Assembly (NCBI GenBank): GCA_963805085.1
Contig: CAWDTA010000001.1
Span: forward strand, 32,001-96,000
Direction of reading: 5' to 3'
Origin: an uncultured Veillonellaceae bacterium
GTDB lineage: Bacteria > Bacillota > Negativicutes > JARBTT01
Length of the DNA: 64,000 nucleotides
Numbering within the stretch: position 1 is the first letter of the stretch; each line of letters starts with the position of its first letter. The translations under genes were made by a program, and so were the position numbers. Positions 23,305 through 62,903 of this stretch are shown here, in pieces. The notes beneath the pieces were generated by a model that did not search any database, was not told the DNA's origin, and saw only the letters and a program-made list of their open reading frames with translations.

Positions 23305-23321
23305 TTAGAGAGAAAATTTGC

Positions 23322-23696: not shown

Positions 23697-23709
23697 AAAG
23701 GAGAAGAAA

Positions 23710-24153: not shown

Positions 24154-24222
24154 ACTTAATCTTTAATTATGTGAGCGCTTATTTACAGAATTATTTATAA
24201 TTGACGATGGAGGGTGAATAAA

Positions 24223-26200: not shown

Positions 26201-26201
26201 C

Positions 26202-26969
26202 TTGTTCGAAAAATTTGCGTTTGAATTGCGGGATATCTGCTATAGTTATCATGCTGGTGAGAAGTCACTATGTGATATAAATTTAACAATTCGGACAGGC
26301 GAGAGAATTGTATTACTTGGACCTAATGGCGGTGGAAAGTCAACTCTACAAAAAATACTTGCGGGTCTGATTTTTGGCGAAGGTAAATTTTTAGCGTACG
26401 GCAAAGAAATTACAGCACGAGCAATGCGCGATAAAAACTTTGCGGCTGCTTATCGGAGAAAGATAGGTTTTGTATTTCAAAACTCTGATGTACAGTTATT
26501 TTGTGCCACTGTTTTAGACGAAATCATGTTTGGACCGCTAGCGATGGGAATGAGTTATGCAGATGCTCTGCAGCGTACGCATGAGCTTCTTGATTTTGTA
26601 GGGATTTCCTTTCTAGCGGAACGAATGCCACATCACTTAAGTGGTGGAGAAAAGAAAAAAGTGGCCATTGCAGCTGTATTAGCCGTAAATCCAGATGCAT
26701 TGATTTTAGACGAGCCTACCAATGGGTTAGATCCAAAAACACAGCGTTGGATGATTACTACTTTAAATGCTTTGCATAAAAGTGGAAAAACGTTGATTAT
26801 TGCGACGCATAATTTAGATTTAGTACGAGAAATTTCGGATCGGGTTATTGTGTTAGGAGAAAATCACCAAATCATTGCCGATGAATCTCCAGACAGCATT
26901 TTAAATAATCGCCAACTGCTTTTAGAAGCTAATTTAATTGATGAATATTGCAGGCAAACAATTGTGTAG
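26202..26969 (+). CDS. ECF transporter ATPase (NikO/CbiO)
   Basis: GPNGGGKST, VFQNSDVQLF, LSGGEKKK, LDEPT. Confidence 0.92.
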   Translation: MFEKFAFELRDICYSYHAGEKSLCDINLTIRTGERIVLLGPNGGGKSTLQKILAGLIFGEGKFLAYGKEITARAMRDKNFAAAYRRKIGFVFQNSDVQLFCATVLDEIMFGPLAMGMSYADALQRTHELLDFVGISFLAERMPHHLSGGEKKKVAIAAVLAVNPDALILDEPTNGLDPKTQRWMITTLNALHKSGKTLIIATHNLDLVREISDRVIVLGENHQIIADESPDSILNNRQLLLEANLIDEYCRQTIV

Positions 26970-26992
26970 CAATTTTTAATATGCATATACTA

Positions 26993-27044
26993 TAAAAGGA
27001 TATGATTCATGTAGTTTTTATTCGAATTTTTTTACAATACTACA
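26993..27044 (-). mobile_element. Terminal half of a Tn7-like left end (terminus ...ACA at 27044)
   Basis: taaaaggatatgattcatgtagtttt plus 18-bp site tattcgaatttttttaca plus atactaca; homologous to 50436-50487. Confidence 0.6.
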
Positions 27045-27144
27045 GTTAATTTGTAGTTTGCTTTTGCGTGTTGACAATATATCATAGTAATGATAGTATA
27101 AATAGGAAGTAAGTTATTAATTTAACTTTTAATTGAATAAGAAG

Positions 27145-27302
27145 AGTTAGGTGTCCTTAACGGACTTAATAGGGAAGTTTGGTGTAATGCCAACGCGGTC
27201 CCGCCACTGTAATAGGGAGCGAATCCAAGAAATACCATTGAAACATTTGTTTTGAGAAGGTTTGGATGAGCAATGAACTAGAGCCAGGAGAACTGCCTAA
27301 TT
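27145..27302 (+). ncRNA. Cobalamin riboswitch 2
   Basis: Complete consensus; promoter TTGACA-17-TAGTAT at 27071; terminator 27420-27453. Confidence 0.95.
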
Positions 27303-27897
27303 GACGATCACCGATTGACCTGCGAGCGATGGGAAGGGGATTAATAGAGTAATCTATTTTTCTCGACTATTTTTAAATGTCGAGATTTTTATTTTTAGAT
27401 TGGTTTATTATAGCTAATTAGCCTCTTTTTGCGCTCGGCAGAAAGAGGCTTTTAGTATTTTGTCGAAAAGTTTTTCCCTACTTTTTAGCTTTTGTGGGGA
27501 AACATTGCTCATATATTAAATTTGTCTTGTTATGCTTTATTGCGTAACTTATGTTCCTACTTTCATAGGAACATCCTTTTTACAATAACAGTTTCTTTGG
27601 CTGTTATATATAGATAGCCTTGGGTTGAGTTGCCCCTCATAATCCAAGGCTATTGTTTTATTAATTTTAGATGGTTATATTGATCGAAAACCTTTCTAAA
27701 AGTAATTAGAAAGGTTTTTATATTTTTCATGTTAGGTTAGGCATCAAATGAAGTTTCTGTTTTTAGCTTATTTGCTTTTTAAGCATACAAAAAATAGAAG
27801 GTTTGTTTGCTTAACATGGGTTATATTATATAGTTTCATGTGTGTGATTTTGTGGAATGGTTAGACTTTTTAACAGTTGAAGGAGAAATGTGAGTAG

Positions 27898-29877
27898 ATG
27901 AAAATGTATAAGAAAAAGTTGATATCTCGTATGATTGCGCTAACATTATCAACAATGGTAGTTTCGCAGGTAGTATATGCAAACGGAAAAAACGATGAGA
28001 AAGAAGATACTTTTGATGAGATGGTAGTTACTGCACAAAAATATGAAAAGCGCGATGTCGATACACCTGCAGCAACAGAAATTCTAACTGAGAAAGATTT
28101 AAAAAATACTGGTGCAAGGAATGTACAACAGGCATTGCAATTTGCAACAGGTATTACATATCAGTCTATGGGGCCTGGTGGAGCATCACTAGGAACAATG
28201 ACTGCAAAAGTACATATTCGTGGTGTTGATGGCGGTACACTAGTTTTAGTGAATGGTACGGCACTGAATTTAAGAGGTTTATATAATTTAGAAGATATCC
28301 CGATAGACAATGTTGAACGTATTGAAATTGTCCGTGGTGGTGGTTCGGTATTGTATGGAAGTGAAGCAACTGGCGGTGTTATTAATATTATTACAAAAAA
28401 AGAAATGCAGAATACTGTCACCACTGGGTTTGGTAATTATGGGCAGCAGACACATGCTTTGACGGTGCAAGAAGGTAAATTTGGTATGGGCTATACTTAT
28501 GAAAAATGGGGTAGTGTTGACAATATATCCACCTATATTTCAGCTAATAAGGAAAAATATAATTCGTTTAAAGGCTCAGAAAAAAATAACGAGTTTTTTA
28601 ATTATAAATTTAATGATGATGTAGATATGCAGGTAAGCCATAATGAATCAATTGAAAAATTTCAATATAAATTTGGCGACGGCTATGCAGCGACAGGAAA
28701 TGCGCAATACGATAGAAAGCATAAAATGACAAAAGATTTTGTACAAATTAATTTCAAAAATGATGCGAATCTAAAAGGAAATATTTATTATAATGAAGAT
28801 GATTTGCAATCAACAGGTATGGATTATTATTCAAGTGCTGGTAAGAAAAAGATAGCACCAGAGGGATACGATAAAGAAGAGAAAAATCGTACATATGGGT
28901 ACGATGTACAAAAATCTTGGAAGTTAAATAGTGGCGAAGTTTTACTTGGAACTACGTATCAAAATGAATTTTTTCATGAGGATATAACGACTTCAGATAG
29001 ATATCAACGCAATAATTATTCGATTTATACACAATGGGAAAATCCATTAAACGATGTCGATACTTTGATTTTAAGTGCGAGAGAAACTTGGACTACAGGT
29101 GCACCGAAATCTGAAAATGGCGAAGATAAAAATTATGATAATTTCAGTGGACAAGGACAGTTTATTCATAAGTTGAATAAAGATGAAAGTGTTTATGCAA
29201 GTATAGGACAATCTTTTAAAATGCCAACGTTTAAGCAAATGTATGCTACAGGATCGTATAATATTATTGGTGATGATAATTTAAAGCCACAAAAAGGGAT
29301 GCATTACGAAGTTGGGTGGAAGAAAAATAGTGATGATCATAAATGGAAGGTGGCAGTATTTGATTATCATATAAAAGACAATATTTCTTATGTTAGTGGT
29401 ACCTTAGCAGGAGATACAGTTTTTTATGCTGTAAATGAAGATTTGAAAAATACTGGGATTGAAGTAAATTGTGAAATTGATGGTCAGAATGGTTGGGTCT
29501 ACAATTATGGTCTTACCTATGGGAATCCTCAAGCAAAATCAAAATCCAGTAAGGCTGGCGTAAAAGATTATTGGGATAGAAATTTTGGTAAATTGCAACT
29601 TAATGGTGGCGTAGGATATCACAAAGATAAATGGGCGGCAAATTTAAATGCGAGCTATTTAGCTGAGCGGGTGATGTGTCCAAGTGATTCACACTCGTTT
29701 GAAACCAAACCATATCTGTTAACTAATTTTAATTTAAATTATGCGGCAAATGCGCAGCAAGAAGTAAGTTTAAGCATAAATAATATTTTAGATCGTGAGG
29801 ATAATGTTAGCTATACGAGCTCGTACTATTACACGACACCAACAAATTATATGTTAACTTATAAATATAAGTTTTAA
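27898..29877 (+). CDS. TonB-dependent receptor, BtuB-like
   Basis: Signal peptide, TonB box EMVVTA, plug NVERIEIVRGGGSVLYGSEATGGVINIITK, C-terminal YKF; B12 riboswitch upstream. Confidence 0.9.
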   Translation: MKMYKKKLISRMIALTLSTMVVSQVVYANGKNDEKEDTFDEMVVTAQKYEKRDVDTPAATEILTEKDLKNTGARNVQQALQFATGITYQSMGPGGASLGTMTAKVHIRGVDGGTLVLVNGTALNLRGLYNLEDIPIDNVERIEIVRGGGSVLYGSEATGGVINIITKKEMQNTVTTGFGNYGQQTHALTVQEGKFGMGYTYEKWGSVDNISTYISANKEKYNSFKGSEKNNEFFNYKFNDDVDMQVSHNESIEKFQYKFGDGYAATGNAQYDRKHKMTKDFVQINFKNDANLKGNIYYNEDDLQSTGMDYYSSAGKKKIAPEGYDKEEKNRTYGYDVQKSWKLNSGEVLLGTTYQNEFFHEDITTSDRYQRNNYSIYTQWENPLNDVDTLILSARETWTTGAPKSENGEDKNYDNFSGQGQFIHKLNKDESVYASIGQSFKMPTFKQMYATGSYNIIGDDNLKPQKGMHYEVGWKKNSDDHKWKVAVFDYHIKDNISYVSGTLAGDTVFYAVNEDLKNTGIEVNCEIDGQNGWVYNYGLTYGNPQAKSKSSKAGVKDYWDRNFGKLQLNGGVGYHKDKWAANLNASYLAERVMCPSDSHSFETKPYLLTNFNLNYAANAQQEVSLSINNILDREDNVSYTSSYYYTTPTNYMLTYKYKF

Positions 29878-29971
29878 GTAATGATAAAATTTGACAAGTA
29901 TAATAAAAAGTGCTACTATAATTTTGGGTTATGACATAATAATGTTTAACTATAAAATTTAATATTGTTGG

Positions 29972-30128
29972 AAATAGGTGTCCTTACGGACTTAATAGGG
30001 AAGTTTGGTTAGAAGCCAACGCGGTCCCGCCACTGTAATAGGGAGTGAATCCAAGATATACCATTGAAACGTTTGTTTTGAGAAGGTTTGGATAAGCAAT
30101 GAACTAGAGCCAGGAGAACTGCCTGTTT
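29972..30128 (+). ncRNA. Cobalamin riboswitch 3 (mut operon leader)
   Basis: Complete consensus; promoter TTGACA-17-TACTAT at 29891; imperfect terminator 30243-30280. Confidence 0.95.
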
Positions 30129-30390
30129 AGCAATCACCGTTAGACCTGCGAGCGATGGGAAGGGGATTACATGTAAGTTAAGTACTCTTCTCGGCATTTA
30201 TTTTGCCGAGATTTTTATTTAATTGTACTTGTTGATGAATAAGAGCCATTTTGCAATACGCAGGATAGGCTTTTTCTTTTTCCCATAAAATGTTAACTAA
30301 AAGGATAACGGATATTTGCATGATGATGTTAAAAGTGTAATTAAATGTTTACTTCGTTGTTACCTAAATGTATAGAAAGGATTGTGAAAG

Positions 30391-50643: not shown

Positions 50644-51279
50644 TTAGCTTGGCAACTGGTGGAATGCCAATACTATTAAAAAGATACCTGATAATGCAGT
50701 AGTATATTTACCTAATTGCTCAGAGGCATATTTTTGTCCCCAATAGTACCCCATGCCGATTGTAAGGAAACTGATAATAGCTACAAAAGTCGCTATTAGT
50801 AAAGGGGGAAGACCAGTGGTACCAGCATCGAAGCCACCAGCTATTGCGTTGATTGAGAGGGCAACTCCAAGCAAGAAAGCTTCCCAAGGGCAGATGTCTT
50901 TGGAATCATCAATATCAACTTTTTCAGGATTGTTTAGTATTTCGGCAGGTCCGATATAGAGTCGTGTACCAAACAGTTGTAAATCCATTATGGATTGTTT
51001 CATTTTTATAGCGGCTATAACAGGCTGAACAAAAACCCATAGTCCAACGGAGAAAAGCAAAGTAGCACCGATAATACTAGCAATATTGGAGGATAAGTAT
51101 AGGCTTATGGTTTTACCAATTTGCGCGGATAGCCATGTAGTAATGAAAGAGATTACGGCTATGATCGTATTTGCCGTATGAGAAATTTTAATTTTTTGCA
51201 TTCCATATGCGATACCGACACCTAGATTATCAAGGTTTGCAGCAATCGCAATAAAAATCGCTAAAGCAATAATTTGCAT
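50644..51279 (-). CDS. YtaF/MntP-family membrane protein (copy 1)
   Basis: AANLDNLGVGIAYG, ALSINAIAGGF, VDIDDSKDI loop. Confidence 0.85.
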   Translation of the reverse strand: MQIIALAIFIAIAANLDNLGVGIAYGMQKIKISHTANTIIAVISFITTWLSAQIGKTISLYLSSNIASIIGATLLFSVGLWVFVQPVIAAIKMKQSIMDLQLFGTRLYIGPAEILNNPEKVDIDDSKDICPWEAFLLGVALSINAIAGGFDAGTTGLPPLLIATFVAIISFLTIGMGYYWGQKYASEQLGKYTTALSGIFLIVLAFHQLPS

Positions 51280-51414
51280 CAATATTTTATCCTCCCTTTT
51301 AATTTTACAAACTATAGTATGGTTTTTTAGAAGTAAGGTTACGCAAATTTTGACCAAAGTTTATATTGTAGTTTCTTCCAACCAATATAAATTGAAAAAA
51401 TATATAATTTAAAG

Positions 51415-51508: not shown

Positions 51509-52282
51509 ATGGCGATTTTAGCAGAACCATTTATTCGCCCATTTTTACAGAGTACCGAAATTGTTGAGACGAAAACTGTATCTAAACAAATTCATGAATT
51601 TGTGAATGATAATCAAGAAGCTGTTCAAGAAGAGTTGCTTGCTGCTCAAATAGAAACTTGCAAAATGAAAGTCAGTCGACTTGTAGAAAAACATATCAGT
51701 GGTTGTAATCTCAATTCTCAAGTATATACTGCACTTTTACTTTCCGAAAAATGCGATTACAATGGCTTAATCAATTCGATGATTACGAATATCAATATAG
51801 ATGGTTTATCAAAGGCAGTAAACAAATTGGTGTTTATGGAAATGGAAAATTATTTTGATGTTTCTATTTCAATGCAGGAACAATTTGTGATTTCTACACA
51901 GAAACTTCTTCCGCCTGTATACGTCAGTCAAGTGTTACAGGAATATGTAAATACCTTACGGGTTACCAAAGTTATGGGGCGAGCAGTAAATAAAGTTTGT
52001 CACAAAGGTCTGGCGAAAATGAATCTGCCAGAGGTTGCAAAAAAATTGACCGATAAAATTGAGCTTGGCTCAGTCTTGATGGGCATTTTTGACTGTCATC
52101 CAGAAAAGCAGAAGAAAAAATCGTATCAACAGATGAACTCGTGCATTAGTGGAATAATTAAAAATTTTAAATTTCAAATAAAAATCCAGCTTGATGAAGA
52201 GATCGTGCAAAGGTTTTATCAGCTTTATGATGAACTAGAAGAAGAAATGGATGAGACGTTAGAAACAAGATTATATGTATAA
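51509..52282 (+). CDS. Hypothetical helical protein
   Basis: 257-aa ORF with AGGAG RBS; no recognised motif. Confidence 0.75.
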   Translation: MAILAEPFIRPFLQSTEIVETKTVSKQIHEFVNDNQEAVQEELLAAQIETCKMKVSRLVEKHISGCNLNSQVYTALLLSEKCDYNGLINSMITNINIDGLSKAVNKLVFMEMENYFDVSISMQEQFVISTQKLLPPVYVSQVLQEYVNTLRVTKVMGRAVNKVCHKGLAKMNLPEVAKKLTDKIELGSVLMGIFDCHPEKQKKKSYQQMNSCISGIIKNFKFQIKIQLDEEIVQRFYQLYDELEEEMDETLETRLYV

Positions 52283-52425: not shown

Positions 52426-53088
52426 ATGCCAAATATTGAATCAAAGGCAGGACAAAAAGAAGAACAGCAAAACTCATCAAGAAACCAGAATGAACAGGAA
52501 AACTTTTCAAGAAATCAGAATGAAGAGCGTAGCCGCGGTCAGTGTATGAGGGAACGAATCTCAAAAACGGTCAATCGAGAATCAGCTGAAGGATTAGACC
52601 AAATTTTTGAGGCTAAGTTGGCCGCTGTTCATACTTATGAAAACAAATTAACATCGGTAACTGATCCGTATGCTCGAAAAGTCCTTCAGGATATGATCAA
52701 TCAAGAACGCAGAGAATTAATGAATCTTACGGAGCTTGCCGATATTGTTGATCAAAGCCCAGATATGGGGCGATTTACCCGTACGCGTCGCCAAATGGGA
52801 CATCAGCTTAAAATGAAAACAGGACATGATACGACGTTTTGGCTTGGAGCAGCTGCATTGACGGTACTCTTGATGCCTGGTTTGAGAGAACAACTTCGGC
52901 CCCTGACAGTTAAGACTACGCAGGGGATCATGAGCTTATCTGAACAGATACAGGGCTTGTTTAGCGGTGTCCGCGAAGATTTAGAGGATATAGTCAGTCA
53001 AGCCCAATTTGAGAAATTCAAGGACTCAATTGATGGTGCAATTGAAGAAACAATACCAGATCCAAATGGTGGGCCAATACATGAATAA
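52426..53088 (+). CDS. Protein with a degenerate ferritin-like helix pair and a C-terminal DUF5132/PacL-like membrane module
   Basis: AVHTYE..TDPYARKVLQDMINQERRE; FWLGAAALTVLLMPGLREQLRP..REDLEDIVSQA. Confidence 0.55.
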   Translation: MPNIESKAGQKEEQQNSSRNQNEQENFSRNQNEERSRGQCMRERISKTVNRESAEGLDQIFEAKLAAVHTYENKLTSVTDPYARKVLQDMINQERRELMNLTELADIVDQSPDMGRFTRTRRQMGHQLKMKTGHDTTFWLGAAALTVLLMPGLREQLRPLTVKTTQGIMSLSEQIQGLFSGVREDLEDIVSQAQFEKFKDSIDGAIEETIPDPNGGPIHE

Positions 53089-53101: not shown

Positions 53102-53335
53102 ATGGAAGATATAAGAATCTTGCAGGAAAAGGTTTCGACGATCAAGCAGGAATTAAGAAATGCTGTAGACTTAAGCCTTGAAATACGAGCACAGTCATCC
53201 GAGTCAAAAGAAGAGGTGATTAAAATTTGGGAAATTTTATTGAAAGATTTATTTGGCTATATTAAGCAGCGTAGTAAGGAGGCAAAAGACAATTTGCTTT
53301 CTGGTGTTTCATGGGCACGCTTAAAGTTATTTTAA
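53102..53335 (+). CDS. Small hypothetical helical protein
   Basis: AAGGAG RBS plus ATG 53102; in operon ahead of the ATPase. Confidence 0.7.
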   Translation: MEDIRILQEKVSTIKQELRNAVDLSLEIRAQSSESKEEVIKIWEILLKDLFGYIKQRSKEAKDNLLSGVSWARLKLF

Positions 53336-53424
53336 ATAAACAGCAAGGAAGAGTCTCCTTGCTATGCTCTTTTTAGTTACCGTCTAAAGTTGAATTAACG
53401 GTTTTGGTAAAAGGGGGATAAAGG

Positions 53425-56400
53425 TTGGAAACAGTGGATGCTACAGGAAAATATAGACTCATACCAGGTCGTTTGCGAATTGAAGTGGATGGTTTGCGCA
53501 GAAATTCTATATTGGCAAAGCGACTAAAAGATCAGCTTAGTCGCGTAAAAGGAATCAGTGAAGTTAGAGCCAATCCACTCACTGGGCGCATTTTGATACT
53601 TTTTGATTATAAAGTTATCGATTTTCCTCAGATAAAGAATGAAATAAATACAGTGGTAAATCAGTATAAAAAAGTTAAACAATTTTACGCTGAAAAAGTG
53701 CTTGTAAATCAAATTGCGGCAACCATTGCTGCCGTTCCAGCTGCGCAGGAAAATTCCAATTCGGGTTTGTATGCGCTTGCCACAGGCGGTGTATTAGCGG
53801 CTATTATTGCAAAACGAATGGTAGTTGGCAAATCACCGCTAGCATCATCACAGCACATTTTTAATTTAACGGCGCTAACAACGATTGTTTCTGGGTATCC
53901 TTTATTTCGCAGTGGCTTACAGGGATTGATACGAGATAAGCGCATCAATCATGATCTGATTATATTTATGGCCTCATTAGTATTGCTAGCGATGAGGGAA
54001 AGCTTTGTCGGTTTGTCCATCTTATGGGTTGTGCATTTAACCAATCTTTTTCAATTTATGGCACAGTCTAAATCCCGTGCCCGAATCCATACAATCATGC
54101 AGCAAAAACAGCATGATTTGTTTAAGCTAGAAAATGACCGTAGGCAGGAAATAAAGGCATATGATATCAAAGAGGGTGATATCCTTGTTCTTCATTCTGG
54201 AGAACGAGTACCTGTTGAAGGCAAAGTCATTGCAGGAAAGGCAGGAATAAATTGTGCTGCTGTAACTGGTGATAGCTTACCTTATTTGGCTTCAGAAGGA
54301 GATATCATAAGTGCTGGTTCGCTAATAGAAACAGGTTCACTACAGATCAGGGTGTTAGATGTAAGCATGACTCCTTTTGTACCACAGGCATATGATGCTA
54401 GTAAGTATGAAGAAAATTGGCATAGTAGTGATCGTTATGTGAATAAAATCATGTGGTGGAGTTTGACGGCAGCAGGGCTCATATTCTTCTTTACTCGGGA
54501 TGTCTCTCGAAGTATTGCTGTACTGCTAGCTGGGTCGCCAGCAGCTATTTCCTTAGCGAGAAATTCAGCGGTGGGGGCAGCTATCGCGCAAGCGACTAGG
54601 CAAAATATCTATGTAAAAGAACCGCGGGCTTTAGAAGCTGCCGGAGAAATAGATACAGTAATTTTAGATAAAACAGGGACCTTGACTGAAGCAGTGCCAC
54701 ATATTGTGGATATCATTGCCTGTGATATGATGAGTGAAAATGATGTTTTGACATTGGCGGCAGCAGCTGGGCAGAAGGAATATCATCCATATAGCAGGGT
54801 ATTGGTGATGGAGACGCAACGAAGAGGTATTAAATTGCCGGAGGCAGTCAGCCAGACGTCTCATGGTATGGGAGTATGCGCAAAAATTGCCGATAAAGAT
54901 GTTGTCGTAGGTAATCGGGCGCTTATGCTACGCGAGCAAATTCAGCTAAGCAGAGTGAGGGCTCAAGCGGCTAGAATGGAGCTCAATGGTAATACCGTCA
55001 CTTATGTCGCTGTAAATAAAAGACTTTGTGGACTAATTGCCGTAAAGGATAAAGTGAAAGAAGCCAGTTTTGAAAGCGTGGCTGCCTTACGATGTATAGG
55101 AATTGAAAATATTGCTTTATTATCAGGAGATTCATCTCCCGCTGCTGATCGTGTTGCAGCAACCCTTGATATTCCATGTAAATATGGGGGGCTGTTGCCA
55201 AATCAAAAAGCAAAAATGATACAAGAGCTAAAAGAGCAGAAATATAAAGTGATTATGGTTGGCGATGGGATTAATGATTCACAAGCATTGGCGATTAGTG
55301 ATGTTGGCATTGCCATGGGAAAAATAGGCGTAAGCCCTACCATCAGTCAGGCTGATATTGTGATAGGGGATGACGATCCACGTAAAATAGCCATGACAGT
55401 AGTTTTAGGCAAACAGCTTAATGAAGTCGTCAAACAGAACACTGCTTTGGCAGCTGGGTTAAATATTATTGGAATTGCTTTAGCCGCAGCACGACTTATT
55501 TCACCTTTGACAGCAGGATTACTGGTTAATATAAGCACACTTGGAGTGGTCTTAAATTCAGGGCGCCTCTTTAAGTCTAAAAAATCTAAAAAAGATATTG
55601 TGGCTTCAAGTAGGTTGGATTTACAGTGCTTTGCCGCACGACAAATTACACCTGAGACTACCAGCCAAAGCGATATAAAAGCGAATTTAGAGACAAAAAA
55701 ATGGCACGGAATGAGCCAAGAAGCGGTTTGTGAAGCATTGGATACTTCGGAAAAATTCGGGATCAGCGAGCAGGAAGCTGGCAGGCGGCGTTTAATCTAT
55801 GGTCACAACAAGTTAACTGCGCGGGAAAAACCTTCTTTTTGGCGACAATTACTAGATCAATTCAAAGATTTTATGGTACAGGTTTTAATGGGGGCTGCAA
55901 CCTTAAGTTTCGTGCTAGGAAAACGAAGGGATGCTATGCTGACCATAGGTATTGTTACCGCTAATGCTTTTCTTGGGGTTGCTCAAGAACGAAAGGCGGG
56001 AAAATCTTTAGAAGTTTTACAGGAATTGGCTGCACCGCAGGCTAGAGTCATTCGTGCAGGACGGACAACAAAAATCAATGCTGCAGCCTTGGTTCCTGGT
56101 GATGTGATTGTATTGGAAGCTGGTGACCGAGTGCCTGCTGATGCTAGATTATTAACAGGCGTTCATTTTGAAGTTGAGGAAGCTTCCTTAACAGGGGAGA
56201 CTATGCCTGTTAAAAAACAGTGGTTAAAAAGTGATGAAATTGAAGTTTCACTAGGAGATCGGAAAAATATGGCATTTATGGGAACAACAGTCACCAAAGG
56301 GCGGGCTATGGCAGTGGTAGTTGCTACGGGAATGACCACTGAAATGGGCAAGATTGCATCCTTGATTGCTCAGCACAAGGAAGAAGCAACGCCACTGCAA

Positions 56401-58449
56401 CGGCGTCTTGAAGAATTAGGGAAATACCTAGTGTATGGTTGTTTAGGCGTTTCTGGACTCGTATTTTGTGTAGGAATGCTGCGTGGTGAGCAATTGATTA
56501 ATATGCTGCAGACAGCGGCTAGTTTGGCTGTAGCAGCGATACCGGAGGGGCTGTCTGCTATTGTTCTTATTGCCTTGGCAATGGGAGTCCAAAGAATGAG
56601 TAAACGTAATATTATTGTTAGCAAACTTTCTTCTATTGAGACACTAGGTTCGGCTACGGTTATTTGTTCGGATAAGACTGGGACACTTACACAAAATCAA
56701 ATGACTGTACGTGAAGTGTTTTCGCTAGGTGGACAATGGGGAGTTTCTGGAGAAGGGTACAATCCCAAAGGGCAGTTTAGTGAGAACAATCAGAATGTGG
56801 AGCCAGATAAGTTGCTAAAAAAGATTGCAAGCATTGCAGCTTTATGCAATAATGCAAAACTTATGAAAGCGCAGCAGAATGTTAATGGTAAAGTAGTGCC
56901 ACTAAAACCATGTAGGGAAGAAAAATGGACGATTGATGGCGATCCTACTGAGGGAGCTCTCCTCACATTAGCTGCTAAAGCTGGGCTTAATCTCGAACAG
57001 TTTACGCAAACGAATTGTCGTGAGATTGAATATCCATTTGAGTCGGAACGGTGCATGATGTCCGTTGTGTGTACCGATGAAAATCAAGAGTCTTCACTGT
57101 ATTCAAAGGGCGCTCCAGATAAAATTATCAGTCTTTGCACGCATTATACAGATGGGGAAAATATTTATCCGCTTGATGATGTATTGCGCCAAAAAGTTGA
57201 ACAGGCTAACGATGCTATGGCCTTAAAAGCGCTAAGAGTGCTGGCTTGTGCCTATCGTCCGATGGATGTTAGTGAGAATAAAGAAGATGAAAGTACAGTG
57301 GAAGGAAAATTAGTTTTTTGTGGACTGGTGGGAATGATTGATCCGCCTCGCCCGGAGGTTCCAACAGCTATTGAAAAGTGTCGGCGGGCTGGCGTGAAAG
57401 TGGTTATGATTACGGGAGATCATCCTAGTACGGCTAAGGCTATCGGTAAGGAATTGGGATTGATTGCTGATAACAGCGGAATCGTAACTGGTGGGCAAAT
57501 AGATAAAATGAGCGATGAAGAACTTATTCAGGCAGTAGAAGCCGTTCGTATATTTGCTAGGACATCACCTCAACAGAAACTGCGTATCGTAAAAGCATTT
57601 AAAAGCAGAGGTGAAGTGGTTGCAATGACTGGAGATGGCGTTAACGATGCGCCTGCCGTTAAGGCCGCAGATATTGGCATCGCTATGGGGGTAACTGGAA
57701 CAGATGTTACAAAACAAGCTGCCTGTATGACTTTAGCCGATGACAATTTCGCAACAATAGTGAGGGCGATGGAAGAGGGACGGTCAATCTATGCTAATAT
57801 ACGCAAAGCAATCCGTTATCTGCTCGCCACCAATATTGGCGAAGTCGTTTTAATGTTTTTGGCGGCAGTGATAGGGATGCCGTTGCCACTGATACCAATA
57901 CAACTCTTATGGATTAATCTTGTTGGGGATGGTCTTCCAGCAATTGCGCTAGTCAATGACCCTCCTCCGGCTGATGTAATGGAACAAGCTCCACAGTCAA
58001 GTAGTGATAGTGTTTTTGCGAATGGCCTAGGAAAGAAAGTTCTCAGCAGAGGCTTGATTATCGGTATGGGGAGTCTTTTCTTATATGCTTGGAAGCTGCG
58101 TGCTAGTGGTAGCATAATGCTTGCGCGTACTTTAACGCTGGCACAACTAGCGATCAGTCAGTTTATTCACATTTTTGACTGCCGCATAGAAAAAGGCATG
58201 GGTGGAATAAAACAATTTGCAAGTAATAAGTGGCTGATAGCAGCTGTTGCTCTATCGATGTCAATGGTTGCTATAGTTATTCAATATCCAGTATTACAGC
58301 CTGTGTTTGGTACTGTAGCTTTGACCGCTTGGGAGTGGCTAATGGCGCTCATTGTGGCGATGATAACCTCGGCAGTAGATTTTCTGGTCGTAAGAAAAAT
58401 TGAACAAAAAAATTTGATACAGCAACCAGTAAAGGTGTTAACTAATTAA
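53425..58449 (+). CDS. Tandem P-type ATPase: HMA_2/P1B(FezB)-like module fused to a P2A (SERCA/YoaB-like) module
   Basis: PGRLR..ANPLTGRILI N-terminus; two DKTGTLT (D~415, D~1083); TGDS and TGET; GDGIND and GDGVND; module 2 has AIPEGL, TNIGE, WINLVGDGLPA. Confidence 0.9.
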   Translation: METVDATGKYRLIPGRLRIEVDGLRRNSILAKRLKDQLSRVKGISEVRANPLTGRILILFDYKVIDFPQIKNEINTVVNQYKKVKQFYAEKVLVNQIAATIAAVPAAQENSNSGLYALATGGVLAAIIAKRMVVGKSPLASSQHIFNLTALTTIVSGYPLFRSGLQGLIRDKRINHDLIIFMASLVLLAMRESFVGLSILWVVHLTNLFQFMAQSKSRARIHTIMQQKQHDLFKLENDRRQEIKAYDIKEGDILVLHSGERVPVEGKVIAGKAGINCAAVTGDSLPYLASEGDIISAGSLIETGSLQIRVLDVSMTPFVPQAYDASKYEENWHSSDRYVNKIMWWSLTAAGLIFFFTRDVSRSIAVLLAGSPAAISLARNSAVGAAIAQATRQNIYVKEPRALEAAGEIDTVILDKTGTLTEAVPHIVDIIACDMMSENDVLTLAAAAGQKEYHPYSRVLVMETQRRGIKLPEAVSQTSHGMGVCAKIADKDVVVGNRALMLREQIQLSRVRAQAARMELNGNTVTYVAVNKRLCGLIAVKDKVKEASFESVAALRCIGIENIALLSGDSSPAADRVAATLDIPCKYGGLLPNQKAKMIQELKEQKYKVIMVGDGINDSQALAISDVGIAMGKIGVSPTISQADIVIGDDDPRKIAMTVVLGKQLNEVVKQNTALAAGLNIIGIALAAARLISPLTAGLLVNISTLGVVLNSGRLFKSKKSKKDIVASSRLDLQCFAARQITPETTSQSDIKANLETKKWHGMSQEAVCEALDTSEKFGISEQEAGRRRLIYGHNKLTAREKPSFWRQLLDQFKDFMVQVLMGAATLSFVLGKRRDAMLTIGIVTANAFLGVAQERKAGKSLEVLQELAAPQARVIRAGRTTKINAAALVPGDVIVLEAGDRVPADARLLTGVHFEVEEASLTGETMPVKKQWLKSDEIEVSLGDRKNMAFMGTTVTKGRAMAVVVATGMTTEMGKIASLIAQHKEEATPLQRRLEELGKYLVYGCLGVSGLVFCVGMLRGEQLINMLQTAASLAVAAIPEGLSAIVLIALAMGVQRMSKRNIIVSKLSSIETLGSATVICSDKTGTLTQNQMTVREVFSLGGQWGVSGEGYNPKGQFSENNQNVEPDKLLKKIASIAALCNNAKLMKAQQNVNGKVVPLKPCREEKWTIDGDPTEGALLTLAAKAGLNLEQFTQTNCREIEYPFESERCMMSVVCTDENQESSLYSKGAPDKIISLCTHYTDGENIYPLDDVLRQKVEQANDAMALKALRVLACAYRPMDVSENKEDESTVEGKLVFCGLVGMIDPPRPEVPTAIEKCRRAGVKVVMITGDHPSTAKAIGKELGLIADNSGIVTGGQIDKMSDEELIQAVEAVRIFARTSPQQKLRIVKAFKSRGEVVAMTGDGVNDAPAVKAADIGIAMGVTGTDVTKQAACMTLADDNFATIVRAMEEGRSIYANIRKAIRYLLATNIGEVVLMFLAAVIGMPLPLIPIQLLWINLVGDGLPAIALVNDPPPADVMEQAPQSSSDSVFANGLGKKVLSRGLIIGMGSLFLYAWKLRASGSIMLARTLTLAQLAISQFIHIFDCRIEKGMGGIKQFASNKWLIAAVALSMSMVAIVIQYPVLQPVFGTVALTAWEWLMALIVAMITSAVDFLVVRKIEQKNLIQQPVKVLTN

Positions 58450-58737: not shown

Positions 58738-59310
58738 TTATTTGACTGGTTTTTTATGGGCGGCGCGGCGACGGGGCAAATCATCAGTTTCCAACTTATC
58801 ATCTATCAACTGGAGTGATGATTCTTCTAAATGGTCACTTGTTTGGGATTCGTCAACAGCATCGACATAGTTAGTAGCATCATTGCTATCATACGTTTCA
58901 ACAGCAAGACCAGCTTTAGCTTCATCCACAACATCCTTGAAGTTGTTACGCAATGATTTGGCTTTGTCTGATAAGGCTAAGGCACCAGCAGCGGTTGCTA
59001 CAGCTACACGACGACCTTGTTTTTTTGCCGTATGCTTTAAACAATCCATTGTTCCGGCTATTGCTTCCTGTGGCGTATTGTCAATATCTCTAGCTTCGGA
59101 AACGATGTCTGCAGTACTTTCTTTTATTTGGACTCCTAGTTCTTTTACACTATCTGCAAGTGCTAAGGCACCTCGGGTAGTTAAGACAGCTGCACTGCGG
59201 AGACCTCGTCTAACTGGTGGGAAAGCGACGGCGATTGCGGCTCCAGTTGCGATAAGAGCAACTGGTGAGCTACTTTCAATAACTCTTGAGCCTAAACGCA
59301 TAATATTCAT
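58738..59310 (-). CDS. DUF5132/DUF1490 (PacL/Fez accessory)-like membrane-anchored protein with a duplicated module
   Basis: TM VALIATGAAIAVAFPP; LRSAAVLTTRGALALAD..ADIVSEAR repeated as RRVAVATAAGALALSD..KDVVDEAK. Confidence 0.6.
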   Translation of the reverse strand: MNIMRLGSRVIESSSPVALIATGAAIAVAFPPVRRGLRSAAVLTTRGALALADSVKELGVQIKESTADIVSEARDIDNTPQEAIAGTMDCLKHTAKKQGRRVAVATAAGALALSDKAKSLRNNFKDVVDEAKAGLAVETYDSNDATNYVDAVDESQTSDHLEESSLQLIDDKLETDDLPRRRAAHKKPVK

Positions 59311-59561: not shown

Positions 59562-60197
59562 CTACCCTAGTAGCTGATGGAGCCCGATTAGCATTAATAA
59601 CGTACCAGACACTAGAGTAGCGTATTTGCCTAGCTGCTCAGCGGCATATTTTTCACCAACATAATTACCTGTATAAATAGTGATAAGGCTGAATATACCT
59701 ATAAGAGCAGCCTCTAATAATGGGGATATGCCGATTGCTCCTGCATCAAATCCACCGGCTAAGGCATTTATGGAAAGCGCAGTGCCTAGGATAATTGCTT
59801 CCCAGTGTCCAATATTCTGTGAATTATCCATATCAGCTCTTTCTGGATAATTTAAAATTTCTGTAGGTCCAATATAGATTCTCCCCCCTAATAGCTGTAA
59901 ATCAATAATTGGCTGATTGGTCTTTATTGCGGTAATGATTGGTTGTGTAAAGATCCAGGCTCCTACCCCGAAGAGCAAGATAGCTCCGATAATACTAGTT
60001 ACTTCTGGACTCAAATATACGATGATTGCTTTACCAATTTCACCAGATAACCATGTGGCAACTAAAGATATTGCGGATATAATGAAATTAGAAATATGAG
60101 AAATTCTGATTTTTCGAATCCCATAGGCAATACCTACCCCGAGATTATCCAAATTGGCTGCTATAGCTATTAAGATACTGATGAAAAAACTATTCAT
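59562..60197 (-). CDS. YtaF/MntP-family membrane protein (copy 2)
   Basis: Close paralog of 50644-51279. Confidence 0.85.
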   Translation of the reverse strand: MNSFFISILIAIAANLDNLGVGIAYGIRKIRISHISNFIISAISLVATWLSGEIGKAIIVYLSPEVTSIIGAILLFGVGAWIFTQPIITAIKTNQPIIDLQLLGGRIYIGPTEILNYPERADMDNSQNIGHWEAIILGTALSINALAGGFDAGAIGISPLLEAALIGIFSLITIYTGNYVGEKYAAEQLGKYATLVSGTLLMLIGLHQLLG

Positions 60198-60404: not shown

Positions 60405-60575
60405 TCATATAGTTGGTTTGTGACTCGCCAATTTGACAGTCCACCAACTTAATATTAAAGAAAAGTGGTCCCCAGCATCGCTGGTTAGTACCAAACTATT
60501 AGTCAGGTATCCGTCGATTAGTTTAACGGTAAATGTCAGCATAGTAACTAAAACTAATAATTTACTAGATCGCAT
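60405..60575 (-). pseudogene. Degraded CDF (CzcD-like) transporter 5' fragment
   Basis: AGGAG RBS; GYLTNSLVLTSDAGD..LSWWTVKLAS resembles CDF TM2 (SLALLSDAGH); truncated. Confidence 0.6.
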
Positions 60576-60741
60576 ATATTTTTCTCCTATAGTGGAATTA
60601 TTGATAGCAATGGAATAGAATAAAGTAATCCAATTGACGATAATGATTATCGGTATCGTGATTTTTTTACAAGGTTGGAACATCCTGCAGTAGATAGGCA
60701 TACAATACTGTGTAAAACCTTCATAAACCCTTCATAAACCC

Positions 60742-60966: not shown

Positions 60967-62244
60967 TTAAGATTGCCCGGTAAAAGTTAGGTACAATAAA
61001 ACAGCATTCAAAGCTATTATGATACTAACGATGCTCCAGCCTACAATATTTGTCAGGCGACTATTTTTAAAAGAGCCCATAATACTTTTTTTGTTTGTAA
61101 TAATCATCAGCGGGATAATCGTTGATGGTAGAGCAAAGCTTAAAATAACTTGGCTATAAACCAACGCTTCCATTGGGTTAATACCGGACATTAAAATTCC
61201 TAGAGCAGGTAGCATGGTCACGAGACGACGAATGCTGGCTCGGATATCAAAGCCTAAAAATCCTTTTAAGATGACTTCCCCAGCCATAGTGCCCACTGTT
61301 GAAGAAGATAGTCCAGAGGCCAAAAGTGCTATACCAAATGCTCCTGCTGCCATGTTTCCCATTAATGGTTGCAGCGTTAGATAAGCTTGCTCAATACCAT
61401 CTACATTTAACCCATTTCCATTGAAAGCGGCTGCGGAAACAATTACCATAGCGGCATTGACAACGAAGGCCATGTTCATTGCGATAAAAACTTCCATCTT
61501 AGCCATTTTGAGATGGTGTTTACAATCGCTTAGGCAGTCGGTACGTCGTGGTTGAACCAGTTCGGAATGTAAGTAAATAACATGTGGCATAACGGTTGCG
61601 CCCAGCATACCTACGGCTATTATTATACTGTCTTGGGATAGAATAGGAACAGCAGTATGATAGGCAACTTGACTCCAATCTGGAGTGGATTCAAACATTT
61701 CCCATACATAGGCAATACTGATTACGGCGACCATACCGGTGATGATTCGTTCAACGACTCGCTGACCATATTTTTGCAGATGGCATATTACATAGGTAAT
61801 CACACCTGTTAAGGCAGCCGACCACATTAAAGGAATTCCGAACAATAGATTAAATCCTAACACTCCCCCAAGAAATTCCGCAAGGTCTGTAGCCATAGCT
61901 GCCACTGTAGCTATAGACCAATATCCCCAATTAACCGGTCGGGAAAACATCTGTCCGCAATGCGCAGGTAAGTTCATCCCTGTGGCTATTCCAAGTTTTG
62001 CTGATAAAGTTTGCACAAAAATTGCCATAATATTACTCCACAGTATAACCCATAACAAATTATAAGCAAATTGAGAACCACCACTGATGTTAGTACCAAA
62101 ATTGCCGGGATCCATATATGCAACACTGACGACGAATGCGGGACCCATGTACTTCAATAGGCCTTTTGCTTTTTGCTTGATTTCTGCTCCGTCTATAGAT
62201 GGTAAGTCTATAGGAACACGAGACGCTAATTGTTGGTCTTTCAT
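60967..62244 (-). CDS. mntH: Nramp-family Mn2+/Fe2+ importer
   Basis: YMDPGN, ATDLAEFLG, GATVMPHVIYLHS, SQVILS. Confidence 0.95.
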   Translation of the reverse strand: MKDQQLASRVPIDLPSIDGAEIKQKAKGLLKYMGPAFVVSVAYMDPGNFGTNISGGSQFAYNLLWVILWSNIMAIFVQTLSAKLGIATGMNLPAHCGQMFSRPVNWGYWSIATVAAMATDLAEFLGGVLGFNLLFGIPLMWSAALTGVITYVICHLQKYGQRVVERIITGMVAVISIAYVWEMFESTPDWSQVAYHTAVPILSQDSIIIAVGMLGATVMPHVIYLHSELVQPRRTDCLSDCKHHLKMAKMEVFIAMNMAFVVNAAMVIVSAAAFNGNGLNVDGIEQAYLTLQPLMGNMAAGAFGIALLASGLSSSTVGTMAGEVILKGFLGFDIRASIRRLVTMLPALGILMSGINPMEALVYSQVILSFALPSTIIPLMIITNKKSIMGSFKNSRLTNIVGWSIVSIIIALNAVLLYLTFTGQS

Positions 62245-62674
62245 TTTTTCACTCCTCAGATGCTTTTGCTATCACCACATTTAAGTTGTAACACTGCAAA
62301 GAGTTTTGCAGTAGTACTATATAGAATATGACTTCATAATAGGATTTGTGAAAGTTTGAAGTAGACAAGCATAGGTGAGAAGTATGGTTTTATTGGTGTC
62401 ATATATTTATTAATAAAAAAAGTTGTTATCTAGACAGCTTTTTATGTTGAGTTTCTATAGTATAGTTGTAAAAACTAATTACAGTATATGACTTAAAATT
62501 GTTAGTAATTTGATGAAAACGTGAAATTATATAAGATTAATAGCCATAAATAAGTATCAATTGATAATTTGATTGAAATACATTAAATTTGATCGAATTT
62601 AACATTTGAATTAATTTTAATGAATCTATTGACAATAATTATTCAAGGTAGTATTCTAATAACGAACTAAATAA

Positions 62675-62903
62675 TTCTTCGTTAGGTGAGGCTCCTGCAT
62701 TGAACATAGGCCACTGCCCGGAAACGTCGAGAGACGCCAATGGGTAGAACAGGTATGACCGGATTAAGGTTTTACATAAGGTGGCTGAGTAACTGATTGT
62801 TAATTCTACGTCATGCAGTGTCAAAGCTCGTACGAGTGGGGAAGGTAATATAGTATTTGTATGCTTAGCAACGCCTTCCGAAATGTAGAGGCGTTGTTTT
62901 TTT
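62675..62903 (+). ncRNA. M-box (ykoK, Mg2+) riboswitch with terminator
   Basis: TTCGTTAGGTGAGGCTCCT..CTGCCCGGAAACGTCGAGAGACGCCAATGGGTAGAACAGG..AAAGCTCG; terminator 62868-62903; promoter TTGACA-17-TATTCT at 62629. Confidence 0.95.

Follow-up and report, generated by a model that had tools for sequence, protein, structure and literature searches.

A P1B-type and a P2A-type ATPase in one chain: a tandem ATPase gene conserved in many anaerobic bacteria

The window analysed here, a stretch of 64,000 nucleotides from an uncultured Veillonellaceae bacterium, contains an open reading frame (positions 53425..58449, forward strand) of 1,674 codons plus a stop, uninterrupted by any internal stop, which begins with a TTG start codon behind a GGGGGA ribosome-binding site; a database record (P0002) is 100% identical to its product, with the start placed three codons further on. 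Upstream lie an MntP-family gene that flanks the cluster (50644..51357, reverse strand; Pfam PF02659), followed on the forward strand by genes for a 257-aa all-helical protein of unassigned family (51509..52282) and a 220-aa protein (52426..53088), and by a 77-aa coiled-coil-like ORF (53102..53335), with a hairpin plus T-run at 53342-53363 between this ORF and the ATPase start. Downstream, all on the reverse strand, are the gene for a 190-aa membrane protein (58738..59310), a second MntP-family gene (59562..60197) and an Nramp gene of the MntH type (60967..62244; Pfam PF01566, E 2.5e-117). Promoter-like counts around the cluster are no higher than in shuffles (18 vs 20.9), nor are terminator-like counts in excess of them (10 vs 6.6, sd 2.8). 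An Rfam gathering scan returned no Mn riboswitch; its matches are an M-box before an MgtE gene, four cobalamin riboswitches and one fluoride riboswitch.

The single reading frame encodes an HMA_2 domain, a complete P1B-type ATPase (module 1) and a complete P2A-type ATPase (module 2), an architecture that is confirmed by domain and motif. Pfam places E1-E2_ATPase and Hydrolase on two stretches each of the 1,674-aa protein, together with Cation_ATPase_N at residues 760-828 and Cation_ATPase_C at 1486-1654. The original prediction, made from the sequence alone, had described one frame with two phosphorylation sites and two GDGxND motifs, an arginine-rich HMA_2-like N-terminus, a P1B-like first half with the unusual motifs GSPAA, VNIST and TGDS, and a P2A-like second half with PEGL, N..E and NLVGD; all of these motifs were checked by coordinate and lie where given below. 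The HMA_2 domain (residues 12-78, 53458..53658, forward strand) matches Pfam PF19991 above cut-off (E 1.4e-11), carries the RxR motif GRLRIE and is modelled as a strand-helix-strand-strand fold with pLDDT >90. Between the modules runs a poorly conserved linker (residues 721-758, 55585..55698, forward strand), whose identity to the five closest relatives is 16-39% vs 74-81% for module 2.

Module 2 (residues 759-1674, 55699..58446, forward strand) has the DKTGT, TGE and GDGxND motifs, the N- and C-terminal Cation_ATPase domains and the M4, M5 and M6 ion-site residues of a P2A pump. It matches the NCBIfam PMR1-type model TIGR01522 over residues 759-1652 with 777.9 bits, slightly below the cut-off of 798.3, and the SERCA-type equivalog TIGR01116 with 688.4 bits against a cut-off of 703.4, while its closest solved structures are LMCA1 (592 bits) and SPCA1 (572 bits), with SERCA at 521 bits. 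The TGE lies at residues 923-925, the PEGL with the M4 ion-site Glu 1041 at 1040-1043 (56542..56553), the second phosphorylation site, DKTGT, with D1083 at 1083-1087 (56671..56685), the GDGVND at 1403-1408, and the M5 NIGE and M6 NLVGD ion sites at 1470-1473 and 1498-1502 (57832..57930), all on the forward strand. In the comparison with SERCA1a, N1470, E1473, N1498 and D1502 correspond to N768, E771, N796 and D800, the equivalent of T799 is Gly, and the region of E908 has no alignment to module 2. Conservation was assessed in a family alignment of 101 rows, each of at least 1,000 aa: the phosphorylated Asp is present in 101/101 rows; TGE, the PEGL Glu, the catalytic D and K and GDGxND are each kept in 100-101/101, the M5 Glu in 89/101 and the M6 Asn and Asp in 95-100/101. 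Module 2 aligns end to end with LMCA1 of Listeria, SPCA1/PMR1 and SERCA, sharing the site-II ligands and N768/E771, but differs from them in the Gly at T799 and in the roughly 750 extra residues on its N-terminal side. It probably works as an exporter of Ca2+ and/or Mn2+, the ions being suggested solely by family resemblance and by the MntP and Nramp neighbours.

The core of module 1 (residues 113-715, 53761..55569, forward strand) comprises eight membrane helices and the A, P and N domains. Over residues 177-715 it matches the heavy-metal P1B model TIGR01525 (NCBIfam) with 607.6 bits, well above the cut-off of 346.25; its AF2 model (pLDDT 85.4) has the P1B fold of MA, MB and M1-M6 with A, P and N domains, and the best Foldseek matches are CopA (4bbj) and ZntA (4umw). 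The phosphorylation site, DKTGT with D415, lies at residues 415-419 (54667..54681), the HP at 454-455 and the GDGIND of the P-domain Mg site at 613-618 (55261..55278), again on the forward strand. In the subset of 58 rows that keep DKTGT in both modules, the P- and N-domain motifs are retained almost throughout (TGD and K595 in 58/58, GDGxND in 56-58/58, HP in 53-56/58).

The dephosphorylation loop and the metal site present a different picture. The TGE(S) loop is replaced in the window protein by TGDS (residues 281-284, 54265..54276, forward strand), and across the 58 forms the residue at this site is Glu in 15, Asp in 27 and another residue in 16, vs Glu in 113/114 stand-alone relatives; both the threonine and the Glu of this loop are unconstrained in fused module 1 and kept in 113-114/114 of the stand-alone proteins. 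At the CPC position of M4 stands GSPAA (370-374, 54532..54546, forward strand), where the AF2 model has a helix kink at 370-372; the site reads S-P-A and thus contains neither Cys nor His, as CPC, SPC or CPH would. The first position of this motif is Cys in 46 of the 58 forms, Ser in 9 and Ala in 3, with Pro in all 58; 46/58 relatives have C-P-[AVMI]. The second CPC cysteine is absent, and in the lineage of the window protein both cysteines are. In M6, VNIST (701-705, 55525..55539, forward strand) occupies the position of HNxST; the His is lost in 57/58, and N702 is kept in 57/58, S704 in 51/58 and T705 in 53/58. From these sequences module 1 is probably no longer a classical heavy-metal pump. 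It is under purifying selection in the window lineage, since its identity with the closest relatives is 57-93% by region vs the 16-39% of the linker: the cytoplasmic domains reach 57-77%, and the M3-M6 membrane core, its best-conserved part at 78-93%, exceeds the average of module 2.

A chain of this kind might be an artefact of the window genome, through a lost stop codon or a mis-assembly, a reading with next to no probability. Nothing was found in its favour. A few relatives are indeed split, as two proteins on one MAG contig (P0136 and P0069), as a 760-aa frame in one genome (G335) and, in Natroniella, as two halves in separate convergent genes. Against it, an unbroken frame of 1,670 aa or more, with a module-1 match that starts no later than residue 12, is present in 16 of the 151 genomes sampled from the same class (G000 included), full-length fused genes occur at seven named genome loci, complete genomes among them, and Thermomicrobium roseum has a decayed member of the fused family as a single annotated gene of 1,607 aa. 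Its recurrence in numerous independent genomes puts the fusion far beyond chance or sequencing error, and the assembly-artefact reading is refuted. The possibility that homologs are always split, which the original prediction had named as the result that would count against it, does not hold: they are mostly unsplit, and DKTGT is present in both modules in 58/101 rows. Many anaerobic bacteria have conserved the fusion.

The relatives have repeatedly lost the catalytic Asp of module 1, or the whole module, with module 2 intact. The 58 two-DKTGT forms reach down to about 37% overall identity. Many relatives carry clearly dead versions of module 1, without DKTGT, without GDGxND and with the A-domain loop deleted; decayed members of about 1,510-1,640 aa occur in Pelotomaculum and Desulfotomaculum, and some relatives consist of HMA_2 plus P2A only, the HMA_2 label still being present on 8/9 matches of 1,000-1,360 aa among the matches listed. 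In the module-2 tree, one clade (support value 99) interleaves 18 forms that keep the module-1 DKTGT, 12 that have lost it and 6 in which module 1 is deleted, an arrangement that requires at least seven changes of module-1 state.

By its sequence, module 1 appears to belong to the HMA_2/RxR group of P1B pumps, which takes in CtpC-like pumps and FezB, and to fall outside the FezB clade. In a preprint (10.1101/2020.01.10.902569), FezB is defined by D[Y/F]SCA in TM4, HNxxT in TM6 and an N-terminal RxR motif. The window protein has the R-rich (RxR) motif; its TM4 reads LAGSPAA and its TM6 VNIST, with the Asn, Ser and Thr kept and the His lost. The marks given for the P1B-6-like, CtpC type in PMC9374683, CPC in TM4 and HN in TM6, are both lost in module 1 and both present in its nearest stand-alone relatives, which, judged by identity, are CtpC-like pumps with HMA_2, CPC and HNxST, labelled 'cation-transporting ATPase C' by one source. 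A quick, unrooted IQ-TREE analysis with 24 fused module-1 rows recovers the YSC (FezB) group as its own clade (100) and places 24/24 fused rows outside the branch (98) that holds every stand-alone CPC and YSC row. The term 'FezB-like' in the original prediction is therefore apt for the HMA_2/RxR N-terminus and fails for both FezB motifs and for the tree position, just as the expected grouping with P1B-6/FezB stands for the wider P1B-6-like set and not for FezB proper. Four genomes also encode a stand-alone, HMA_2-bearing CPC pump in the same island, at a distance of 2-8 kb from the fused gene. The second HMA_2 match in the window genome (L002) was considered as a FezB/CtpC pump and rejected, being an ordinary CopA with CxxC and CPC.

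The surroundings of the gene add a further element, in that it sits in a conserved cluster with two putative PacL-like membrane proteins, whose similarity to DUF1490/DUF6110 is below threshold. The 190-aa protein, with homologs at 6/7 related loci, consists of one hydrophobic helix, two amphipathic Glu/Ala helices and an acidic tail; it shares with PacL a single TM helix, a cytoplasmic Glu/Ala-rich helix and a disordered tail, and adjoins a P-type ATPase with an RxR-type N-terminal domain. It scores 15.8 bits against DUF1490, below the Pfam cut-off of 28.4. Among 12 members of its family, DUF1490 is matched by 4 (E up to 1, best 1.9e-5) and DUF6110 by 2, DUF5132 is also weakly matched by these neighbour proteins, and one relative carries a precomputed PF07371 label; the DUF1490 model also responds, below cut-off, in 5/14 unrelated control genomes. 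Aligned by hhalign with five true DUF6110 proteins, the family gives 83.2% (E 8.7e-6, 63 columns), and true DUF6110 genes lie directly upstream of RxR-type P1B-6 (VD[FY]SCA) pumps in 5/5 sampled loci. The 220-aa protein joins a weakly encapsulin-ferritin-like N-part to a PacL-like helix module as in the 190-aa protein. The 257-aa protein is the most constant neighbour of the fused gene (tblastn matches at 7/7 related loci; AF2 pLDDT 82), and a fold search with it gave no significant match, the best (E 0.09) being to generic helical bundles. ORFs similar to the 77-aa frame were seen by eye in L003, L004, L006, L090 and L091, and an MntP homolog is also adjacent in L003 and L006.

PacL is described in two papers (PMC13460109; PMC9374683) as binding the N-terminal domain of its pump. 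PMC9374683 reports DUF1490 from Actinobacteria only, and its supplementary tables, as far as covered, include Veillonella as the only member of the Negativicutes, with no Sporomusa, Propionispora, Lucifera, Pelosinus or Acetonema. The window locus resembles the CtpC-PacL1 'effluxosome', which pairs a P1B-6-like pump with a DUF1490 scaffold, in the HMA_2-bearing CPC+HNxST relatives of module 1 and in the one-helix neighbours with Glu/Ala-rich cytoplasmic helices. It differs in a P1B unit that continues into a P2A pump, with neither CPC nor HN and with TGD for TGE, and in PacL-like proteins that are longer (either two repeats or an N-part resembling ferritin), lack a His-rich tail and fall under the Pfam thresholds. 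A complex prediction for HMA_2 (residues 1-100) with the cytoplasmic part of the 190-aa protein (residues 30-140) scored 0.00 with the fold of the partner uncertain, a result that carries no weight on either side of the docking question.

These neighbours also bear on a ferrosome-type (Fez) system, in which module 1 would be the equivalent of FezB/FezH and load iron into a membrane compartment, aided by the ferritin-like 220-aa protein and the hydrophobic-helix proteins. Such a system would account for the RxR/HMA_2 N-terminus, found in FezB and related pumps according to the same preprint (10.1101/2020.01.10.902569), for the small hydrophobic-helix proteins encoded alongside and for the encapsulin-ferritin-like (EncB_fam) matches of the 220-aa family (E 8.2e-5; 3/12 members). 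These matches are far under cut-off (22.6 vs 90 bits), however, both FezB signature motifs are missing, the YSC clade (100) does not include module 1, and the neighbours, with MntP twice and Nramp, suggest Mn rather than Fe; module 1 also has eight predicted membrane helices where FezB has six. We consider a Fez system very improbable.

The reading that we favour, and to which we give an even chance of being right, is that module 2 is a Ca2+/Mn2+ exporter and that module 1 and HMA_2 together form an accessory unit, a phosphorylatable regulator and anchor docked on PacL-like scaffolds. Module 1 would derive from a P1B ATPase of the HMA_2-bearing 'P1B-6-like' group, among the relatives of CtpC-like pumps and FezB, and would have retained ATP binding and aspartyl-phosphate formation while losing the canonical transmembrane metal ligands and relaxing its dephosphorylation loop. 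Export would be the task of module 2, a canonical P2A pump of the LMCA1/SPCA/PMR1 kind, and module 1 may act as a slowly cycling regulator and membrane anchor. HMA_2 would dock the pump on the PacL-like single-pass proteins of the same cluster, by analogy with the docking of PacL to the N-terminal domain of CtpC-type pumps. The original prediction had envisaged an active Ca/Mn pump to which a half serving as scaffold or regulator is coupled; the evidence favours this part of it, its 'FezB-like' qualifier being imprecise. A counterpoint on the docking side is that the PacL-like assignment is sub-threshold and the profile-profile value of 83% not decisive.

Some observations on module 1 run counter to a purely accessory unit and fit two working pumps in one chain. 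Its phosphoryl-transfer and nucleotide-binding residues are co-retained across the 58 forms, which speaks for real ATP turnover, as an active second pump would need too, and Asp or Glu still stands at the TGE site in 42/58. Module 1 would then move an ion using the Asp/Glu of its TGx loop, module 2 would move Ca2+/Mn2+, and the fusion would fix a 1:1 stoichiometry or couple the two cycles. The ion of module 1 would not be a classical soft metal, since the site now consists of Ser/Cys-Pro plus Asn, Ser and Thr; the retention of these M6 residues and of the M4 Pro, noted above, speaks for such a path, as does the complete predicted P1B fold, and because M3-M6 is its most conserved part the ion path could still be used. 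Weighing against a second pump are the losses of the module-1 Asp or of all of module 1 at least seven times among close relatives with module 2 intact, the unconstrained threonine and Glu of the TGE loop, and the absence of the His and second Cys of the parental metal site. On balance two pumps seem unlikely, if still a serious candidate. The same losses could instead mark module 1 as an inert relic, a pseudo-ATPase serving as a folded membrane spacer or anchor whose motifs have not yet eroded in the window lineage. The many relatives with dead modules and those reduced to HMA_2 plus P2A agree with this, but a neutral module would not keep some 15 catalytic positions across 58 forms as divergent as these, nor cytoplasmic domains so much more alike within the clade than the linker; we regard it as improbable.

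Literature searches listed no paper that speaks of fused, tandem or double P-type ATPases. The sole related statement encountered is a single sentence, in a review of 2026, about AlphaFold models of CtpH and CtpI, giant P2-type proteins that PMC10654040 describes as isolated in P-type ATPase trees and uncharacterised. In that sentence the models begin with a P-type-ATPase-like region and continue, in the same chain, as a canonical P2 pump, which agrees with the analogy to these large mycobacterial ATPases drawn in the original prediction. Compared by this description, the window protein resembles them in its very large size and its layout, which the decayed members in Pelotomaculum, Desulfotomaculum and Thermomicrobium share, and differs in an N-terminal module whose P and N domains are intact (DKTGT, TGD, K, GDGxND and HP). 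A tblastn search of plasmids with the window and Thermomicrobium proteins found no actinobacterial fused form, searching a protein atlas with a decayed member of the family led to no actinobacterial protein, and the named control genomes produced no mycobacterial match that could be used. By analogy, the fusion looks like an early stage of the mycobacterial giant pumps. A broader proposal, which we advance tentatively as possible rather than probable, is that in this family an intermediate stage has survived which accounts for the giant CtpH/CtpI-type ATPases: a P1B-6-like pump that depended on PacL would have fused to a P2A Ca/Mn pump and set it on a PacL-type platform. In lineages like that of the window protein the N-terminal pump would persist as an ATP switch, dead for transport but still competent for phosphorylation, by which the C-terminal pump is gated or stabilised; elsewhere it would have decayed step by step, first to a pseudo-ATPase and finally to an HMA_2 domain that serves for docking alone.

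Although P-type ATPases belong to the pumps that are understood best, two of them in tandem within a single chain are all but undescribed. If the proposal is true, the reach of PacL-type platforms would go beyond P1B pumps to include a P2A Ca/Mn pump. In non-pathogenic anaerobes the fused family forms a graded natural series, with both engines intact, with the first dead, and with the first deleted and HMA_2 kept, in which one can directly test what the extra module does and what PacL-like scaffolds do outside Actinobacteria.

The fused ATPase gene (53425-58449, forward strand) is a single open frame of 1,674 codons that starts with a TTG 9 bases downstream of AAAGGGGGA, and all of the motifs that the original prediction had listed, among them two DKTGTLT and two GDGxND motifs in one chain, were confirmed in place. 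Pfam locates an HMA_2 domain at residues 12-78, E1-E2_ATPase and HAD in two stretches each, Cation_ATPase_N at residues 760-828 and Cation_ATPase_C at residues 1486-1654. In NCBIfam, residues 177-715 belong to the P1B subfamily of heavy-metal pumps with 607.6 bits (cut-off 346), and the best match of residues 759-1652 is the PMR1-type Ca pump, whose cut-off of 798.3 is narrowly missed at 777.9 bits. The G+C content of the gene is 42.8%, against 37.3% for the whole window. A terminator-like hairpin (53342-53363, forward strand; 8-bp stem plus T-run) separates a 77-aa ORF from the start of the ATPase gene; transcription of the pump may therefore begin at a promoter of its own or reach it by read-through.

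The fusion in the window protein is real. From a whole-length protein search in which 8,000 candidates were scored, the best 120 were taken, and the alignment built from these has 101 rows of at least 1,000 residues, including the query and minus its identical database copy. DKTGT in both modules and a full-size module 1 are found in 58 of these 101 rows (hereafter keeping forms), from Pelorhabdus (79% identity), Propionispora, Sporomusa, Lucifera, Methylomusa, Dendrosporobacter and many MAGs, and a scan of one genome per species gave full-length genes at seven loci, some on complete chromosomes. Within the window's class, module 1 was matched in 68 of 151 sampled genomes (E up to 1e-70), most matches being ordinary P1B pumps of 630-830 aa that align only from about residue 125; in 16 of the 151, including G000, the match begins at or before residue 12 in an open frame of 1,670-1,812 aa. 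Decayed forms fail the E threshold, so both counts are lower bounds. One class genome (G235) has a partial module-1 match in a frame of 1,619 aa and another (G335) a match in a 760-aa frame; the sole further genome from the window's genus, which is 84% complete, has none at E up to 1e-70.

A split version is present on one MAG contig as the database relatives P0136 and P0069, and Natroniella sulfidigena carries an unfused version of the pair, a 681-aa gene convergent with an HMA_2-type P2A gene (locus L046, 6076-8973 forward and 9187-11232 reverse). The product of the 681-aa gene is decayed and HMA_2-P1B-like, with HMA_2, TGQP and an M4 SPS; DKTGT and GDGIND are kept and the N-domain is mostly deleted. 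A P2A gene followed by a separate CPH-type P1B gene was observed in three MAGs, two of Babeliales and one of Pseudomonadota (L028 5995-10735; L064 6001-11456; L034 433-6068). Adjacent P2-type and P1B-type pump genes also occur on many plasmids: in 20 plasmid records at least 80% of the query is covered at a single place, and most such places among the matches listed consist of two pieces with two gene annotations.

In module 2, the TGE, the PEGL Glu, DKTGT and GDGxND are each kept in 100-101 of the 101 rows, the M5 Glu in 89 and the M6 Asn and Asp in 95-100. Among solved structures it scores highest against LMCA1, the Listeria Ca2+-ATPase (592 bits), and human SPCA1 (572), followed by SERCA (521). 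At the SERCA1a residues used for comparison, which are established Ca2+-binding positions, N768, E771, N796 and D800 are kept and T799 is replaced by Gly, and the E908 region gave no alignment with module 2. We infer an outward Ca2+ and/or Mn2+ pump. The cluster is flanked by two MntP genes and one Nramp gene, and an MntP homolog is also adjacent at two of the seven related loci, which is only circumstantial support for Mn. Elsewhere in the window, a 98-aa ORF (60405-60701, reverse strand), possibly a fragment of a gene, weakly matches the beginning of the Cation_efflux (CDF) family (E 0.005), and the forward strand bears four cobalamin riboswitches (21951-30140), one fluoride riboswitch (19098-19162) and one M-box (62671-62847), the last preceding a PRC/MgtE-N gene at 63330.

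Module 1 was modelled confidently with AlphaFold2 from a 58-row alignment (pLDDT 85.4, pTM 0.76), with A, P and N domains all present, HMA_2 folded as strand-helix-strand-strand and eight long helices (residues 113-134, 143-171, 176-189, 193-228, 334-357, 360-392, 653-688 and 694-712), of which 360-392 kinks at Ser-Pro. The top fold matches are CopA in the E2P state (4bbj, E 1.5e-40) and ZntA. Eight helices would leave both ends of the module cytoplasmic, so its junction to the P2A N-terminus is predicted to be topologically sound. All phosphoryl-transfer and nucleotide-binding positions are co-retained in the 58 keeping forms (TGD and K595 58/58, GDGxND 56-58/58, H454 53/58, P455 56/58). The TGE loop is relaxed in the same forms (Thr in 17, Gly in 48; third position Glu in 15, Asp in 27, other in 16), the His of the HN motif is gone in 57 and the first M4 position is Cys in 46, Ser in 9 and Ala in 3; among 114 stand-alone relatives, TGE is kept in 113-114 and the His in all. 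Identity between the window protein and its five closest relatives is 57-77% for the A, P and N domains of module 1, rising to 78-93% for its M3-M6, and is 74-81% in module 2 and only 16-39% in the linker (residues 721-758). Judged from these regional identities, module 1 is under selection in this lineage, most strongly in the membrane core. The main rival explanation, that module 1 is a second slow pump for another ion, would also fit this strong M3-M6 conservation and the completeness with which the catalytic residues are co-retained; we consider it rather unlikely.

The closest stand-alone relatives of module 1 (34-38% identity; Heliobacterium, Desulfosporosinus) have HMA_2, TGES, ACPCAAG and HNLST, and CPC+HN pumps such as CtpC are termed 'P1B6-like' in PMC9374683. 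A farther stand-alone set has TGEF, IDYSCG and HNxxT, which make up the FezB signature by the definition of a preprint (10.1101/2020.01.10.902569). A quick, unrooted IQ-TREE phylogeny of 75 rows combined 24 of the 59 fused rows having one DKTG and more than 600 aa, 47 of the 114 stand-alone rows (nearest kept, then every third) and four module-1-like short proteins. The YSC rows form one clade (support 100), a branch (support 98) parts all stand-alone from all fused rows, and the four short proteins nest within the fused group. The tree has no root and two long rows in it were flagged, so fused module 1 may be either sister to the stand-alone pumps or nested in them.

Loss of module 1 was followed in a module-2 tree of 74 rows, comprising 24 of the 58 keeping forms, 32 of the 43 other long rows (24 entered as 'DKTGT-lost' and 8 as 'short', with module 1 deleted) and 18 stand-alone P2A pumps. 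In one clade (support 99), 18 keeping forms stand among 12 lost and 6 short ones, and at least seven changes on the tree are needed to account for the labels; examples are P0040 versus P0042/P0045, P0028 versus P0062 and P0044/P0053 versus P0060/P0066. HMA_2 is still labelled on eight of the nine listed relatives of 1,000-1,360 aa (best 120 of 8,000), the sole exception being P0069, the back part of a split gene in which HMA_2 is carried by the front part. Pelotomaculum and Desulfotomaculum forms of about 1,510-1,640 aa have a module 1 without TGE, DKTGT and GDGxND. In another phylum, a Thermomicrobium roseum megaplasmid encodes, as a single gene (L089, 2911-9803 with its small neighbours), a 1,607-aa protein whose module 1 is fully dead, whose module 2 is intact and which has two RxR/HMA_2-like repeats; the two PacL-like motifs can be made out by eye in neighbours of 79 and 155 aa. 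A protein atlas queried with P0084 residues 1-640 (language-model features, score 0.94) returned Bacillota 'hypothetical proteins' of about 556 aa, in clusters of up to 838 members, that resemble the decayed module and, as a lead only, may be free-standing relics.

Beside the fused pump, tblastn finds a 257-aa protein at 7/7 related loci, a 190-aa protein at 6/7 (at the remaining one, L041, the sequence stops about 1.2 kb past the pump) and a 220-aa protein strongly at 3/7. The 257-aa protein is an all-helical bundle for which a fold search matched nothing significant. The 190-aa and 220-aa families share a module that starts with a Gly/Ala-rich hydrophobic helix, followed by P-x-[VL]-R-x-x-[LI]-R and an amphipathic helix ending ...[RK]E...[DE]IV[SA]EA...; in the 190-aa protein the second part is repeated and an acidic tail follows. 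According to PMC13460109, PMC9374683 and PMC13043812, DUF1490 defines the PacL proteins, which attach through their Glu/Ala repeats to the N-terminal domain of CtpC, CtpG and CtpV and are required for pump stability and clustering, and the related DUF6110, mainly of Firmicutes, is encoded with P1B-6 pumps. Individual scans of 12 family members matched DUF1490 in four (best E 1.9e-5), encapsulin-associated ferritin-like families in three, and DUF6110, DUF5132 and YtxH in two each, all below curated cut-offs, as are the window's DUF1490 match (15.8 bits) and the match of the N-part of its 220-aa protein to the ferritin-like families. Weak hits to the DUF1490 model also turn up in 5 of 14 control genomes, so the window match alone is non-specific. 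As an independent check of the PacL-like link, true DUF6110 proteins were collected; only 5 of 201 sampled genomes of the phylum encode one, and in all five a VD[FY]SCA pump with an RxR N-terminus lies directly downstream. When the 22-row family was compared with these five proteins profile against profile, the probability was 83.2% (E 8.7e-6; 63 columns, both helices). The 190-aa protein has 20 relatives in the database set, of which one has a precomputed DUF1490 label and seven, whose longest contigs equal those of fused pumps in length, are taken to lie on the same contigs as these pumps.

Four class genomes have a stand-alone pump of 750-780 aa, aligning from residue 12 with the HMA_2 region included, 2-8 kb from the fused gene; it has TGE and CPC in the two islands examined, and none was found in the window's genome (83% complete). 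These larger islands (L090 2673-14169; L091 3547-17533) hold PacL-like gene(s), the stand-alone CPC-type HMA_2 pump with an adjoining 210-222-aa unknown protein, and the fused pump with the 257-aa, 220-aa and 77-aa families.

Of the systems described, the nearest are the giant CtpH/CtpI ATPases, the CtpC-PacL platform, FezB/DUF6110 pairs and the LMCA1/SPCA pumps; unlike the fused pump, none of these joins two engines in a single chain while keeping both phosphorylation sites. No description of such a family turned up in the literature searched, which took in few subscription journals and so does not prove absence. With about even confidence, we favour a division of labour in which module 2 would carry out transport and module 1 would have abandoned classical soft-metal pumping. 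In this lineage module 1 would still bind ATP and be phosphorylated on D415, the phosphate being removed slowly or in a regulated way. HMA_2 would dock the pump onto PacL-like scaffolds, the simplest reason why relatives losing module 1 retain that domain.
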